Assembly (NCBI RefSeq): GCF_024502345.1
Contig: NZ_JALDNN010000003.1
Source of the DNA: Escherichia coli
Lineage (GTDB): Bacteria; Pseudomonadota; Gammaproteobacteria; Enterobacterales; Enterobacteriaceae
Strand: one strand, 5' to 3'
Length of the DNA stretch: 64,000 bases
Part shown: piece by piece, positions 6,200 through 43,092 of the stretch
How the letters are laid out: every line of letters starts with the position of its first letter
How positions within the stretch are numbered: position 1 is the first letter of the stretch
Position numbers and translations under genes: made by a program
The notes under the pieces: generated by a model
Databases searched by the model: none
What the model saw: only the letters and a program-made list of their open reading frames with translations
Told to the model about the DNA's origin: nothing

Positions 6200-6290
6200 A
6201 CGTAGGCCGGATAAGATGTTTTAGCATCGACATCCGGCAACGGTGCGGTTTAAATGCCGGATGCGGCGTAGATGCCTAATCCGGCCTACA
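6200..6290. repeat. REP/BIME-like extragenic palindromes
   Basis: GTAGGCCGGATAAG ... GCCGGATGCGGCGTAGATGCCTAATCCGGCCTAC, typical enterobacterial REP units in inverted orientation. Confidence 0.6.
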
Positions 6291-6302
6291 TTTCACTGAG
6301 TA

Positions 6303-7044
6303 TCAGCCGCCAACGACGGCTGAAGAAGAACCTGGTACCATCACTTCAGTTGCGATAATCACAACCAACAGCCCAACCAGAACCGGAACCGAGGTACGTT
6401 TCACCACTTCGAACGGAGAAATCTTTGCCATACCTGCGACAGCGACAACCACGCCGGAGACCGGGGAGATTGTGCGCCCAAGGTTTGACGCCTGCAGCAT
6501 CGGGATAACAAGGTAAGCCGGGTTAATGCCGGAAGAATGCGCCAGCTTAGGGATCATTTCAACGAAGGCGTAGAACGGGGCGTTACCGGAACCCGTAGTC
6601 ATTGCCGCCAGCATAGTCAGGATCACCAGCACCATCATCAAGATAATGCTCGCTGAACCAAACGAGGTGGCGATAGAAATCAGACTCTGAATAAAGCCGA
6701 TTGTGCTCAGACCCTGGGCAAAAACACCCGCAGCGACTAACAACATCACCACGTTAGCAAAGGCATCCGCCATGCCACGGTAAGCGACTTCCAGACCAGA
6801 GAAAACCTTTTGGGTGTTGAACCCACGTACGAACTCCAGAATAGCCGCGATGAGCATGCACAGAACCAGAATCGTAATGATGTGCAACTGCGGGCCCCAT
6901 TTACCATCAAAAATCAGGACGCCAACGATCGGGGTAAACGGCAGAATGGCGTAAAATGACGGGGCAGTCGTGGTGATTTCAGCCACATCTAACATTTCAT
7001 GAGAAATGTTCTCTTTTTTATCCAGAAAACGCTGCCAGAAAAAG
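6303..7044 (-). pseudogene. dcuC: anaerobic C4-dicarboxylate transporter DcuC, 3' fragment (N-terminal ~210 codons missing, cut by IS26)
   Basis: Translation FFWQRFLDKKENISHEMLDVAEITTTAPSFYAILPFTP... matches C-terminal half of DcuC; reading frame runs into IS26 IR at 7045. Confidence 0.85.
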
Positions 7045-7832
7045 GGCACTGTTGCAAATAGTCGGTGGTGATAAACTTATCATCCCCTTTTGCTGATGGA
7101 GCTGCACATGAACCCATTCAAAGGCCGGCATTTTCAGCGTGACATCATTCTGTGGGCCGTACGCTGGTACTGCAAATACGGCATCAGTTACCGTGAGCTG
7201 CAGGAGATGCTGGCTGAACGCGGAGTGAATGTCGATCACTCCACGATTTACCGCTGGGTTCAGCGTTATGCGCCTGAAATGGAAAAACGGCTGCGCTGGT
7301 ACTGGCGTAACCCTTCCGATCTTTGCCCGTGGCACATGGATGAAACCTACGTGAAGGTCAATGGCCGCTGGGCGTATCTGTACCGGGCCGTCGACAGCCG
7401 GGGCCGCACTGTCGATTTTTATCTCTCCTCCCGTCGTAACAGCAAAGCTGCATACCGGTTTCTGGGTAAAATCCTCAACAACGTGAAGAAGTGGCAGATC
7501 CCGCGATTCATCAACACGGATAAAGCGCCCGCCTATGGTCGCGCGCTTGCTCTGCTCAAACGCGAAGGCCGGTGCCCGTCTGACGTTGAACACCGACAGA
7601 TTAAGTACCGGAACAACGTGATTGAATGCGATCATGGCAAACTGAAACGGATAATCGGCGCCACGCTGGGATTTAAATCCATGAAGACGGCTTACGCCAC
7701 CATCAAAGGTATTGAGGTGATGCGTGCATTACGCAAAGGCCAGGCCTCAGCATTTTATTATGGTGATCCCCTGGGCGAAATGCGCCTGGTAAGCAGAGTT
7801 TTTGAAATGTAAGGCCTTTGAATAAGACAAAA
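7045..7832 (+). mobile_element. IS26 (IS6 family), left 788 bp, interrupted by IS66-family insertion
   Basis: Begins GGCACTGTTGCAAA (IS26 terminal IR); contains intact tnp26; sequence ...GAATAAGACAAAAG breaks at 7833. Confidence 0.9.
7108..7812 (+). CDS. tnpA: IS26 transposase Tnp26
   Basis: MNPFKGRHFQRDIILWAVRWYCKYGISYREL...RLVSRVFEM, 234 aa, matches IS26 transposase as I recall it. Confidence 0.95.
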   Translation: MNPFKGRHFQRDIILWAVRWYCKYGISYRELQEMLAERGVNVDHSTIYRWVQRYAPEMEKRLRWYWRNPSDLCPWHMDETYVKVNGRWAYLYRAVDSRGRTVDFYLSSRRNSKAAYRFLGKILNNVKKWQIPRFINTDKAPAYGRALALLKREGRCPSDVEHRQIKYRNNVIECDHGKLKRIIGATLGFKSMKTAYATIKGIEVMRALRKGQASAFYYGDPLGEMRLVSRVFEM

Positions 7833-16540: not shown

Positions 16541-17860
16541 TTAAGGTTGTGATTCGGGTGAATTGTATCGTCTAGCTTCCGGGAAATGAGGGAGTTCCTG
16601 GTATTCAGTCTTCTCCGTAGCATCCCAGTGCCACCATCCATAGGCCCCATATTCCTGGTTGTAATACGCCTTCTTAAGTTCCTTTCGCGCAAGATAGGCA
16701 GGTGTCGACATCCCGAAAACTTCCATCGGGAACGGCTTATCACTTCGTGTATCCAGTAAATAAAAATCTGGGAAAACATCGCTCACACTGGCGTCATACC
16801 GCATAGGCTTAACATAGTGCCGGTGTTCGGCATCAAGTTTACGGGACACTATCGCTTCGTAGGAGGAGTCCAGAGGTATCCAGTTATCACTCACCAGCAT
16901 AAGCACTATCTGATGAGCTCGTGCAGAGATACCTCTACTGGTCACCGATACGGGAGATGTAAGAGCAAAAACAACAACTTTGCCCCCATTTTTCCAGGCG
17001 GCATATTCCAGAGGGAATCGCCGCTTCACGCTATCCCAGTGCCCGTCTGAGTTAAAGAAGGTAAGGGGCATACCGCCGAAGTTACGCATAGGTAGAAACT
17101 TCAGCGGCTTCTCATGCTTTTCTGCGTCATAGCGCGGCAGTACTGATAGCAGCAGCAGTCGTTTGTCGCTCAGTTCCGCCGACGACAGCAGTTGAACCTG
17201 CTCACTGGCCACTTTGCTTTTAGAGTCCGCCACCCCGATAAAAAGATGGTCGCCAATACATGCTCTACCCGATCTAATCTGCTTTGCGGCTTCCAACATC
17301 CGGTATCGAACCAGCGAATCATTTCGCTTCCCGGCCATATTCGGATACCAGACATTAAGACCGGCTTCAGTCCACAACAGACTCAGAAGTCCGGACAGGG
17401 TCATTGAAGCCTGGCCACCTTCAGGTCGCTGGATTTGGGGCAGGGAAGGAACCTCAGACTTTTCCGGCGGATCTTTCTCCGTCATGCCTATTCCAAGGCG
17501 GATTGACATGGTCCCCTCATTGTTGATGCGTACAACATTGCTGGCATAACCCTTTAACCCTGTATGCCTGGCATCAAGGTCGAAAAACACACACGATGGA
17601 TCATGCTCAGTGCCGGTATTTGCAGCCTTAATCAGGATGAACGTATCACTGTTTGGTAGTGAGCGGACGTAGAGACGCTTTGCGCCTTTTCCCCGACATC
17701 CGCAGCTGATCACAGATTTCTGCCCGGACGTGTGGTGTGCTTTCTTCAGGGCCGACTGCCATCCCTTTACATACTCATCCTGTGTCTGAAATTCAGCCGA
17801 GTATCGTTTCGTGTTTGGTTCGTCATCGTAAGCAATAAAAACTGCAAACTTCTGGCCCAT
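16541..17860 (-). CDS. hypothetical 439-aa protein downstream of C5-methyltransferase; candidate restriction endonuclease or methylation-dependent partner
   Basis: Strong SD AGGAGG before ATG at 17860; co-directional with MTase; no family recognised by eye. Confidence 0.65.
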   Translation of the reverse strand: MGQKFAVFIAYDDEPNTKRYSAEFQTQDEYVKGWQSALKKAHHTSGQKSVISCGCRGKGAKRLYVRSLPNSDTFILIKAANTGTEHDPSCVFFDLDARHTGLKGYASNVVRINNEGTMSIRLGIGMTEKDPPEKSEVPSLPQIQRPEGGQASMTLSGLLSLLWTEAGLNVWYPNMAGKRNDSLVRYRMLEAAKQIRSGRACIGDHLFIGVADSKSKVASEQVQLLSSAELSDKRLLLLSVLPRYDAEKHEKPLKFLPMRNFGGMPLTFFNSDGHWDSVKRRFPLEYAAWKNGGKVVVFALTSPVSVTSRGISARAHQIVLMLVSDNWIPLDSSYEAIVSRKLDAEHRHYVKPMRYDASVSDVFPDFYLLDTRSDKPFPMEVFGMSTPAYLARKELKKAYYNQEYGAYGWWHWDATEKTEYQELPHFPEARRYNSPESQP

Positions 17861-39909: not shown

Positions 39910-41115
39910 TCATGCCTGGCCCTTGTTCTGCTTTTCAGCATGTTTACGCAGGTACTGCGTCAGATCGCCGTGAGCTTCACAAATGGCATTCATCTCGTCA
40001 TTGGTCAGCACCAGAGTGTAAGTATCGTCGCTGAGGTTCTTAGCGGCCCGTTGTTTAGCTTCTTCCGCAATACGCGAAAACAGCGGGATTGCCGTGTCCG
40101 CAATCGTCGTCACGGTCTTTTTGTTCAGTACGCTGGAGACCGACACAGCTTTAGGCTCTGGCGTTTTGACCGGGTCTTTCATCTGCGGTGCCGGGGTCCT
40201 TTCCGGGGTCGGCTCCGGGTTAGTGCCCGCACTCCCGTCCACCAGCTGCGGTGGGGTGGTCTCATCGTTAGTACCTTCGCCGGACGTTTGTTCAGTCACG
40301 GTGGTTTCCGGGGGGGTCGCATTTGCGTCCGGCACGATGGCTGCTTTCGGCTTCATCGCTGCATCAATGTTGCCAGCTTTGACGAATTTCAGGGTTTTGG
40401 CCGTCGCCTTACCATAAACATCAATGGCTTTGGTGATGTTGTTGACCGCTTCATCGCCGCTGTAAAGGTATTCATCCAGCGCGACATACATACTCACTTC
40501 ACCCTTCACCAACATGGCCTGGAGGGCTTCAGGCAGATCCAGGACGCGAACCATCTGACGCAGGTGCTGTTCGGTTTTACCGCGACGCTTCGCCAGTTCA
40601 GCGAACGTTTTGGGTTCTTCCGCGTCTTCAACCATCCGTTTGATGGAGAGCGCCTCAGCTACGACAGACAGAGCCAGATTTGAGTTACCGTCCAGCGTAA
40701 ACTGCTCGGCACTGGCGCGGCTACCGCGAAACTCCTCGCATCGAATTAACGTGATCAATTCACGCCCTTCATCTGCCAGCTCGATGTTTGCCATCGCGAC
40801 GGCACGGATACGGCATGCTCCCTGGCGCAGGACCGGACGGCCATTCAGAATCTGTACGACAATAGCTTGTACGCTTAAAGGATCGATCTTGTAGGACTCT
40901 TTCAGGCTGTTCAGGTGGGCTACCACGTCAGGTAATGAGTAGTAACTCTCCCCAATGCCAGCAGTACGGGTGTTAAACCCCTCTTCCTCTTCGACCACTG
41001 CCGGGTTAATGACTAGACCATTGCTTTTGCGTGCGCCGTTACCGGTACGCTCCAGGTAGGTGCGCAGGCTGATATCGTTGTTAGCGGTTTTTACATCATT
41101 TTCGACAGTGGACAT
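39910..41115 (-). CDS. ParB/KorB-like DNA-binding protein (orphan, no adjacent ParA)
   Basis: GxxRxRA-type ParB box (RQGACRIRAVA), HTH (KTFAELAKRRGKTEQHLRQMVRVL), low-complexity P/T/E linker; assignment tentative. Confidence 0.5.
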   Translation of the reverse strand: MSTVENDVKTANNDISLRTYLERTGNGARKSNGLVINPAVVEEEEGFNTRTAGIGESYYSLPDVVAHLNSLKESYKIDPLSVQAIVVQILNGRPVLRQGACRIRAVAMANIELADEGRELITLIRCEEFRGSRASAEQFTLDGNSNLALSVVAEALSIKRMVEDAEEPKTFAELAKRRGKTEQHLRQMVRVLDLPEALQAMLVKGEVSMYVALDEYLYSGDEAVNNITKAIDVYGKATAKTLKFVKAGNIDAAMKPKAAIVPDANATPPETTVTEQTSGEGTNDETTPPQLVDGSAGTNPEPTPERTPAPQMKDPVKTPEPKAVSVSSVLNKKTVTTIADTAIPLFSRIAEEAKQRAAKNLSDDTYTLVLTNDEMNAICEAHGDLTQYLRKHAEKQNKGQA

Positions 41116-41204: not shown

Positions 41205-41230
41205 AAAAAAAAGTAACTTTTTTTCCGGGG
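41205..41230. promoter_or_regulatory. palindromic motif copy R0 (AAAGTAACTTT core + TTTTCCGGGGG)
   Basis: about 90 bp upstream of ParB-like gene start; see motif finding. Confidence 0.45.
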
Positions 41231-41324
41231 GTTATAGTACGCGATCCGTCCGTTTTAAATTCTCGCTAAGGAGGGCAAATTTCACTTTAGTGTGAAAAGC
41301 GGGTACATAAAGCAGGAATATGTC

Positions 41325-41348
41325 GAAAAAGTTACTTTCCCGGTTGCC
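41325..41348. promoter_or_regulatory. palindromic motif copy R1 GAAAAAGTTACTTTCCCGGTTGCC
   Basis: 23/24 match (one indel) to copy at 59289-59312. Confidence 0.5.
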
Positions 41349-41875
41349 TGAAAAAATGCCGTTGCAGCAAACACAAGGTGTGAACACCCCCCCCGCCCCG
41401 GCGGCTCCGGGCAAAGGAGTATCCGATGAAGCTTTCCCGGCAGACCACAAATGATACGGCTGTAATCGAAGGCACCCGCAGATTACCGACCATATCGCCT
41501 CCCAGCGAGCCACCGAAGCCAAAAAAGACGGCATGAATTTTAATGCAGGCGTTGAGCTTGCATCTAAAAGGAACTGTGCAACGAGGACAAACATTACCAT
41601 GATTGAACACCGCACAGAGATGCGCCAAACGGCCATTAAATCGCTTCAGGAAGCCGAAGAAGCATTGACGGCACTGGCTATGTCCTATGAGCTACAGCCC
41701 GATGATAAGGCCAGTTCGTGTCATCCACGGACCGGTACTCTCTCCACGGCCAGCCAGGTACGGAAATTGCGCCGTGTCGTCGAAAAGCAGAAAACTTGAA
41801 ATTCGACAAGGCGGCGGGTAGCTATTTCCTGCATGTACAAACTAACAAGGGTTTAGCCGACGATAGAAAGGAAAA

Positions 41876-41907
41876 AAGGGTTTCCCCGACCGGAGAAACC
41901 CTTTTCT
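41876..41907 (+). terminator. rho-independent-type hairpin (GGGTTTC...GAAACCC + T-run)
   Basis: AAGGGTTTCCCCGACCGGAGAAACCCTTTTCT. Confidence 0.45.
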
Positions 41908-41944
41908 AAAGGTGCCATTAGCTTGCTGGCCCACATTCTGAAAT

Positions 41945-41964
41945 GAGGGGGGTCGCCCCCCCTC
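41945..41964. terminator. G/C-rich perfect hairpin GAGGGGGG-TCG-CCCCCCTC just downstream of hok
   Basis: Read directly; 6 bp from hok stop codon. Confidence 0.4.
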
Positions 41965-41970
41965 TTTCAG

Positions 41971-42129
41971 CTACTTACCGGATTCGTAGTCCATCACAGC
42001 CGACACTTCCCGTGTACCGTCTTTCAGCCTCAGTTCGCAGAGCGAATTGCGCGTAAGCCAGGTGAATATCAACAGCGTAAGACATACTATCAATACGCAC
42101 AAAACAACGGGTTGGTTCGGCAGTTTCAT
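41971..42129 (-). CDS. hok: Hok/Gef-family type I toxin (52 aa)
   Basis: [52 protein letters not shown]; AAGGAG SD; ORF-track 100-aa version is an in-frame upstream extension. Confidence 0.85.
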
Positions 42130-42486
42130 GGCCTTCTTCTCCTTGCATTTAAGCGGGTAAGAGGCTACTCTGAATGTGACTAGCATACAGGGGCCTCGGG
42201 TTAATTTGAAAAAATTACTCGGGGCTTTCTGCTTTTTACCACAGTCAAACAGTGAATCTGCTGGCTGGGGCAAAAGCCTCCAGCACCGAGGTTATTATAC
42301 CACCCCGCCCCTTTTAAACGAACAGATCGTTCTCCTAAATATTTAATAAGTAAGTATTTCAGGTTTTGCTGCTTCGCAGGCTGTAACAGCAGGTGTCTGA
42401 CGTAATAACTGATTAAACAGACGGATTCGAATCTCAACACTCAACGACGCCAGCTCGCCTGTTCCCCCGCTTCTTTCCGGCTGTAA

Positions 42487-43092
42487 TCAGTCCGTTTTCG
42501 TACCAGCGATCAGTGACAAACGGTGAGCACGAACACTACTGTGCCGGAGGCTGTCCGGGTAATGGGCGATTTTCTCCAGTTCCTCATCGAGGCGGGTATA
42601 CGTCAGCCTCCTGATTTTCAAGATTTCCTTGTGAAGCCAGCGTTTGATAAAGGGATTGCCGGAAAGCAGTACCAGGTCTGCATCCTCCACTTCATCAAAA
42701 AGCCAGACGGGTTTTGCCGGAGTAAGGCGGTAGAGCCAGGTGCGGGAAAACTCCCCCGTTGCAATCAGAAACCAGACAACCATGCCAAGTGCGAACTCGA
42801 TGACCAGCATCAGGGTAAACTGAATATCCCGGACGTCAGGCTCTCCGGTAAAGCTCATTAGGCGGTCGCCAGTTGCCAGACGCTGAATAATACAGACCAG
42901 CATCAGCAGAGCCAGTAACAGCGCCATGAGCAGCCCGCCGTTCACTTCAAAAGTAGCTTTCTGGACGCGATCAGGCGGCACCTGCTTACGGTAGCGGCCG
43001 ACCACATCACCAATCATTACCCTGATGGCTATGCGTTCTTCATCGACCGTTGTTTCGGTAAATCCGGACGGGCCCGTTTCTGTTTGATTCAT
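42487..43092 (-). CDS. hypothetical membrane protein (201 aa, 2 predicted TM helices)
   Basis: Hydrophobic segments LLMALLLALLMLVCII and FTLMLVIEFALGMVVWFLIA. Confidence 0.5.
   Translation of the reverse strand: MNQTETGPSGFTETTVDEERIAIRVMIGDVVGRYRKQVPPDRVQKATFEVNGGLLMALLLALLMLVCIIQRLATGDRLMSFTGEPDVRDIQFTLMLVIEFALGMVVWFLIATGEFSRTWLYRLTPAKPVWLFDEVEDADLVLLSGNPFIKRWLHKEILKIRRLTYTRLDEELEKIAHYPDSLRHSSVRAHRLSLIAGTKTD

Follow-up and report, generated by a model that had tools for sequence, protein, structure and literature searches.

The hok locus described in this work lies on the minus strand of the window, a stretch of 64,000 nucleotides of Escherichia coli DNA, where positions 42129 to 41971 encode a toxin of 52 aa (RefSeq WP_001447600.1). 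The initial annotation had called this gene a member of the Hok family, and the profile searches bear the call out: the 52-aa ORF matched Pfam HOK_GEF (PF01848) with E=5.4e-19 (68 bits) and NCBIfam NF007279 (Hok family toxin) with 124 bits against a cutoff of 73, the match covering profile positions 1-52 of 52. The G/C hairpin that had been reported next to hok is also present, directly after the stop codon (41968-41940). The 501-bp region from 42350 to 41850 of the window is 100% identical to the corresponding region of the IncHI1 plasmid R27 (NC_002305.1, 91099-91599) and of pHCM1 (NC_003384.1), and 205 plasmid records carry the 501-bp hok region with at least 99% identity. More than 200 IncHI1 plasmids possess the identical hok locus. 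The plasmid pHCM1 is from S. Typhi CT18. In the RefSeq annotation of R27 the locus is represented by the Hok CDS only, with Sok and the leader ORF unannotated. As set out below, the locus is very probably an ordinary and intact hok/sok plasmid-addiction cassette of IncHI1 plasmid R27, similar to that of plasmid R1 and provided with an in-frame leader of the mokC type.

The start assigned to Hok by PGAP is inconsistent among related loci. It is an internal start giving 39-41 aa in the R1-type and IncHI2 loci (607-732 in the extracted R1-type segment, 518-637 in the extracted segments of two IncHI2 loci) and the 52-aa start in R27 (6222-6380 in its segment), while other submitters have named a 71-aa in-frame ORF 'Stm', 'HokB' or 'stable plasmid inheritance protein'. 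Window positions 41230-41799, just beyond the hok terminator, contain a pair of small ORFs (66 aa, plus strand; 126 aa, minus strand) that run in opposite directions and overlap at their 5' ends; they match the R27 CDS pair at 6552-6752 and 6741-7121 of the extracted R27 segment. Neither of the pair has a Pfam family. Pfam scans of seven neighbouring R27 ORFs detected no family, and the ParB-HTH protein at 39910-41115 of the window is the sole neighbour of hok with a family.

The locus was aligned with R1-type, IncHI2, Klebsiella IncF and K-12 hokC loci and with six or seven other loci from GTDB genomes, giving a set of 12 loci. The R1 parB sequence used here is 100% identical to many IncF plasmids. 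In the R1 numbering, tac is at G4-U6, the anti-Shine-Dalgarno (aSD) sequence at A70-C74, the mok Shine-Dalgarno (SD) sequence at G105/A106, the mok AUG at 116-118, and the hok AUG at 174-176 (PMC9841398). The features of the predicted hok mRNA, all on the minus strand, are as follows:

42294..42322, minus strand: putative hok promoter, with an extended -10 TGGTATAAT (42302-42294) and a weak -35 TTCGTT (42322-42317)
42287 to 41872, minus strand: predicted full-length hok mRNA of about 416 nt, from a +1 G placed by alignment to R1 GGCGCUU to the end of the terminator
42287-42275, minus strand: tac, the 5' end GGUGCUGGAGGCU, pairing with fbi in the predicted full-length mRNA
42225-42218, minus strand: ucb or anti-SD GCCCCGAG, predicted to sequester the SD of the upstream ORF in the full-length mRNA and corresponding to R1 A70-C75
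42197-42194, minus strand: SD of the upstream ORF, GAGG, aligned with the R1 mok SD G105-G108 and located 7 nt upstream of ATG 42186
42190-42178, minus strand: putative Sok target (sokT) CUGUAUGCUAGUC, spanning the upstream start codon and complementary to the predicted Sok 5' tail
42186..41971, minus strand: putative mokC-type upstream ORF of 71 aa, made up of 19 leader codons and Hok in the same frame
42165-42161, minus strand: dcb GCCUC, complementary to the SD region GAGGC, with a role assigned from the R1 model (PMC9841398)
42148..41975, minus strand: 57-aa ORF in the +1 frame, a remnant of the R1-type Mok frame
42144-42139, minus strand: hok SD AAGGAG, read from the sequence
42129..41971, minus strand: hok toxin gene, 52 aa, stop codon included (Pfam, NCBIfam, RefSeq)
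41968-41957 paired with 41952-41940, minus strand: G/C hairpin GAAAGAGGGGGG/CCCCCCUCAUUUC, with a 12-bp stem in the minimum free energy (MFE) fold
41938-41924, minus strand: part of the 3' UTR with complementarity to the upstream ORF around its start (42185-42172); the full-length MFE fold contains 13 pairs between them
41923-41911, minus strand: fbi AGCUAAUGGCACC, pairing with tac in the MFE fold
41907-41872, minus strand: predicted intrinsic terminator of the hok mRNA, a 16-bp stem followed by a T-run

The -10 element of the putative hok promoter aligns with TATAAT or TATGAT of 11 related loci and is followed after 6-7 nt by GG(C/U)GCU, the conserved 5' end of the mRNA. A consensus promoter scan of 41700-42500 did not call this promoter because of its poor -35. 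The scan did return a promoter-like site within hok (42093-42065, minus strand), which we regard as a chance occurrence. The only terminator-like site found by consensus scan in 41700-42500 was the one at 41907-41872. In an Rfam scan of the whole window a single match was obtained, RF01794 'sok', at 42288-42127 on the minus strand, with E=1.4e-18 and 89.1 bits against a gathering score of 59, well above chance expectation; the match spans the full model (positions 1-157 of 157). The R1 locus itself scored 88.9 bits, and by this measure the R27 leader is as typical of the family as the paradigm locus. Despite its name, the model represents the hok-sense strand and ends on the hok AUG, with which its last three positions align, and in K-12 the RF01794 match is on the hokC-sense strand (502-654, minus) with RefSeq sokC on the opposite one (553-611, plus; coordinates in the extracted segment). 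The match in the window therefore marks a canonical hok mRNA leader, and the Sok RNA belongs to the opposite strand.

The 417-nt sequence 42288..41872 folded with an MFE of -155 kcal/mol (z=-4.9 relative to shuffles), and this full-length fold recovers three features known from the R1 model: tac closed onto fbi, the ucb/SD hairpin, and the 3' end paired with the upstream initiation region. In this fold 42287-42281 pair with 41917-41911, and 42278-42275 with 41923-41920. The tac/fbi helix is 99% paired over the 12 loci with compensatory changes at two of its eight pairs, among them C3:G of the R1-type loci, which is U3:A in the IncHI loci. Covariation counts outside tac/fbi were degraded by MAFFT misalignment of hairpins of variable length and were not used either way. 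The ucb/SD hairpin (42225-42212 / 42207-42193) is present in both the MFE and the centroid folds and keeps its position in the aligned loci, and the GCCCC of ucb is invariant in the 12 loci; dcb is located in a block, TAGCCTCTT, that is invariant in 11 of them. The third feature, the pairing of 41938-41924, agrees with the R1 finding named in the title of Thisted 1994, according to which the 3' end of the R1 mRNA and Sok are competitors for the translation initiation region of mok.

In R1, hok mRNA isoforms of 441, 398, and 361 nt occur, the 398-nt form being processed to 361 nt, and a stem-loop blocks the 3' exonucleases. By analogy, the R27 isoforms would be of approximately 416, 378, and 349 nt. 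The G/C hairpin of the window occupies the same 3' position as the hairpins of other plasmid loci, with a different sequence, and on that comparison it is read as homologous to the R1 stem-loop at the end of the processed, translatable mRNA, which that stem-loop protects, and not as a terminator. The complementarities needed for refolding exist in the sequence, the 5' GGUGCU with AGCCCC and GAGGC with GCCUC. The open refolded form (tac/ucb, SD/dcb) was absent from the MFE folds of the 3'-truncated mRNA and of the leader alone, which contained only a 5' metastable hairpin and the closed ucb/SD hairpin. We infer from the R1 model that the truncated hok mRNA refolds into the open form.

A cis-encoded antisense RNA had been expected in the 5' leader (42130-42300) in the initial annotation without being delimited; by homology with R1 and hokC/sokC it can be delimited in silico, with the following predicted parts:

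42143..42171, plus strand: putative Sok promoter, -35 TTGCAT (42143-42148), 17-bp spacer, and -10 TACTCT (42166-42171)
42178..42238, plus strand: predicted Sok RNA of about 61 nt, with +1 G at 42178 by homology with R1 Sok and K-12 sokC
within it, plus strand: a single-stranded 5' tail of about 10 nt GACUAGCAUA, a hairpin at 42188-42231, and a U-rich 3' tail CUUUCUGCUUUUU to about 42238

The promoter geometry is the same in all 12 loci: TTGnnn, exactly 17 bp, TAnnCT (CACTCT in K-12), 6 nt, and G(+1). The Sok 5' tails vary among these loci, and a constant promoter geometry combined with varying tails is the pattern expected of a conserved gene whose tail sets the specificity. The promoter was not called by the consensus scan since its -10 TACTCT matches only three of the six consensus bases. 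The predicted Sok RNA folds with -21.3 kcal/mol (z=-4.4 to -4.6; none of 200 shuffles was as stable) into the architecture of R1 Sok and K-12 SokC, and 11 loci preserve its lower stem, either unchanged or through wobble compensation; pair counts of the upper stem were spoiled by MAFFT misalignment and are not used as evidence. R1 Sok is 64 nt long and consists of an 11-nt single-stranded 5' tail followed by a stem-loop. The R1 tail, 5'-GACUAGACAUA, is the reverse complement of the anti-Sok PNA-1 TATGTCTAGTC and covers the mok AUG. In RefSeq, sokC starts 8 nt inside mokC, the equivalent position in the window being 42178.

The R1 mok ATG precedes the hok ATG by 58 nt and, read in the +1 frame, starts a coding sequence of 70 aa. 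The homologous ATG of the window, ATG 42186, is 57 nt upstream of the hok ATG, and its frame is open through the hok SD and AUG. One nucleotide is missing after it (ATG-CTAGTC in the window, ATG-TCTAGTC in R1), and as a result of the 57-nt instead of 58-nt spacing it is in frame with hok. A full-length R1-type Mok (70 aa, +1 frame, SD-preceded ATG) is absent from the locus, the SD-preceded ATG being in frame 0. The initial annotation held that a 100-aa frame at hok was an in-frame extension and not a separate mok. The 100-aa ORF, starting at TTG 42273, is indeed an upstream extension of hok in the same frame, and it contains ATG 42186, the internal start at which a mok equivalent was missed. 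From the alignment, it is most likely that the locus has such an equivalent, ATG 42186 being the positional homologue of the R1 mok start and its layout relative to hok being that of the annotated K-12 mokC/hokC pair.

An in-frame start of this kind is not peculiar to the window. The 57-nt spacing is found in seven of the 12 loci compared (R27, IncHI2, C. freundii, Phytobacter, Franconibacter, and K-12 hokC), and the 58-nt spacing in the R1-type loci; in K-12 the start coordinates of mokB and hokB are also 58 nt apart, which corresponds to the +1 arrangement. K-12 mokC (16751..16960) and hokC (16751..16903) have starts 57 nt apart and a common stop in RefSeq. Literature searches gave no explicit statement that mokC is in frame with hokC, and the claim therefore rests on these RefSeq coordinates. 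The 71-aa ORF, leader included, shows 36% identity to K-12 MokC, and database entries on at least 1000 contigs already list it under the names 'Stm' or 'putative stable plasmid inheritance protein'.

Alignment of the leader with R1-type and other loci, one of the analyses suggested in the initial annotation, thus yields counterparts element by element, and in the predicted fold of the leader, which had been suggested as well, the tac/fbi closure and the ucb/SD hairpin appear in the full-length mRNA. Regulation at the locus, left undecided in that annotation, can be described in terms of R1, each R1 regulatory element having its counterpart here. By analogy with R1, the weak promoter on the minus strand would produce a stable hok mRNA of about 416 nt, which pairing of tac at the 5' end with the 3' segment fbi, together with the ucb anti-SD, would keep closed to ribosomes and to Sok. 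Slow trimming from the 3' end to the G/C hairpin after the hok stop would free the 5' end, and the leader would refold to expose the SD and the start of the upstream frame at ATG 42186. As long as the plasmid is present, the unstable Sok of about 61 nt would be made from the conserved plus-strand promoter (+1 at 42178), and its single-stranded 5' tail would pair over the upstream start codon, blocking translation and marking the duplex for RNase III. When the plasmid is lost, Sok would decay first and ribosomes starting at the upstream frame would read on across the hok ribosome-binding site; Hok would then be made, and this membrane toxin would kill the plasmid-free cell. The upstream frame in this scheme would be in frame with hok (mokC type) and not in the +1 frame (R1 mok type). 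What the coupling needs is a frame open up to the hok ribosome-binding site, so an in-frame leader would suffice.

Three other explanations of the locus were weighed against this reading. The locus could be a decayed or silent hok copy whose killer function is gone, like the IS-inactivated chromosomal hok loci of K-12. The R1-type +1 Mok frame is broken, by the 1-nt deletion after the ATG and a TAA before an internal ATG, both promoters are sub-consensus, and the related IncHI2 copies have often been hit by IS elements, all of which fits decay. Against it, the cis elements are all intact and the hok ORF is of full length, the tac/fbi change is compensatory rather than degenerative, the 57-nt in-frame layout is shared by diverged loci and by the annotated mokC/hokC pair, and the identical sequence is kept in more than 200 plasmids; we consider a decayed copy very unlikely. 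A different possibility is that the functional leader ORF is the 57-aa +1 frame from ATG 42148, a shortened R1-type Mok, and not the frame from ATG 42186. This ORF is open to the usual CGG-TAA end and matches the Mok families DUF5431 of Pfam and PRK13720 of NCBIfam (E of about 1e-17 to 1e-18), but the match covers profile positions 14-70 only, the first 13 being missing, its score of 62.6 bits is below the NCBIfam cutoff of 110, and conservation, at the nucleotide level, of the hok codons that overlap it accounts for the similarity to Mok. Moreover, a TAA stands directly upstream of its ATG, there is no SD, and the ATG is 30 nt past the Sok-complementary region, so that Sok could not block it; the TAAATG is absent from other loci with 57-nt spacing (C. 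freundii, Phytobacter, and Franconibacter). The 57-aa ORF is most likely not a functional gene, and that it serves as the leader is extremely improbable.

The third explanation is that hok is translated directly from its own SD (AAGGAG, 42144-42139), uncoupled from any upstream frame, and that Sok acts only through RNase III decay. The hok SD and AUG make a good ribosome-binding site, identical to that of R1; the sequence of the hok SD region, GCAAGGAGAAGAAGGCCATGAA, is the same in R27, R1, and 10 GTDB genomes, and the leader peptide is unconserved, since every difference between R27 and IncHI2 in the 19 leader codons changes an amino acid. On the other hand, the upstream SD, the ATG, and the open frame to hok have been kept in 12 of 12 loci, which makes uncoupled translation a most improbable account. 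The coupled, mokC-type reading is preferred here. A variation on it is that the single locus produces two Hok isoforms, a 71-aa extended Hok ('Stm') from 42186 and the 52-aa Hok from the internal start. We regard this as rather unlikely; if true, the 71-aa form might be the principal killer or one with a function of its own, and the 57-nt class (seven of the 12 loci) would be a single-ORF variant with two starts rather than a coupled pair of overlapping genes.

The family, its mechanism, and the in-frame variant were already known, and the gene was already annotated, so that nothing of substance is new here. The significance is mainly one of annotation: IncHI1 resistance plasmids such as R27 and S. 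Typhi pHCM1 carry what appears to be a complete hok/sok addiction module, the predicted Sok RNA, the ORF in the leader, and the control elements of the mRNA now have exact coordinates, and this copy is assigned to the in-frame mokC-type class. Literature searches found no experiments on transcript, processing, or killing at the R27/IncHI1 hok locus. Faridani et al. counted one hok gene in 'Salmonella typhi' and none in the plasmid-free Ty2. Their count is consistent with the pHCM1/R27 hok copy, a link that is drawn by us.

Several other hok copies came to light in the course of the comparisons. In the IncHI2 plasmid p13C1065T-1 (NZ_CP019260.1, segment 1-480) an element of the IS3/IS150 family is inserted in the hok leader within the Sok terminator hairpin; the insertion removes the hok promoter, tac, and ucb, and recalls the IS-inactivated hok loci of K-12. 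A split leader is common to many IncHI2 plasmids, which form a group with 83% identity matching query positions 149-484 only, in two places per record. In the IncHI2 plasmid p628-mcr (NZ_CP091551.1, segment 500-780) an insertion of the ISNCY family directly follows the 'CCAT' at the start of hok (GGCCAT|TGTTAAC). The hok coding sequence is gone from this site, and the Sok gene, still complete and accompanied by the hok promoter and leader, is left as an orphan antitoxin. Hok/sok loci identical to R1 were also found on short contigs (about 5 kb) of Streptomyces morookaense (contig164) and of an Oscillibacter (Clostridia) MAG; these are most likely E. coli plasmid or vector contamination of the assemblies.

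Among the known systems, R1 hok/sok (parB) has the same order and spacing of promoter, tac, ucb, mok SD/ATG, sokT, dcb, and hok SD as the window, and the two are also alike in the 52-aa Hok, the 3' stem-loop, fbi, the terminator, the geometry of the Sok promoter, and the Rfam score (89 vs 89 bits). They differ in the upstream start, which is 58 nt from hok in R1 and 57 nt and in frame in the window, with the 70-aa +1 Mok not encoded in the window. The tac/fbi sequences are GGUGCU/GGCACC in the window and GGCGCUU/AAGCGCC in R1, and the leader of the window is 15 nt shorter. The Sok 5' tail is GACUAGCAUACA in the window and GACUAGACAUAG in R1; judging from these differing tails, cross-repression between R27 and R1 Sok is unlikely, and the design of anti-Sok oligomers or of plasmid curing directed at IncHI plasmids could benefit because the tail is unlike that of R1.

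K-12 hokC(gef)/mokC/sokC shares with the window the 57-nt in-frame offset and the common stop, and its sokC begins 8 nt into the leader ORF, the position predicted for Sok in the window. The 19-aa leader of K-12 mokC, MLNTCRVPLTDRKVKEKRA, is similar to the 19-aa leader of the window, and tac begins with GGUGCU in both. K-12 hokC differs in that its Hok part is only about 36% identical and that it is chromosomal rather than plasmid-borne. In addition, IS186A ends 20 nt downstream of the K-12 hokC stop; K-12 hokC has lost its 3' fbi and terminator region to this IS186 copy, and the 3' half of the K-12 row in the alignment is non-homologous.

The IncHI2 hok/sok loci (R478-like backbones) have 84-87% nucleotide identity over the whole cassette. 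They resemble the window in their synteny downstream of a membrane-protein homologue of 201 aa, in the in-frame leader, in the TAAATG, and in a nearly identical Sok, and differ in a Sok hairpin loop shorter by 2-3 nt, in a few Hok substitutions, and in that many copies are interrupted by IS elements. Finally, in an IncHI1B Klebsiella plasmid (NZ_CP056484.1, segment 420-780) an R27-like hok with its 3' UTR (95.7% nucleotide identity) is located about 70 nt directly downstream of relB-relE, an arrangement that resembles relBE-hokD (relF) of K-12. The relBE-hok arrangement is without the native leader, the upstream ORF, and the Sok target, whereas the window has all of these.
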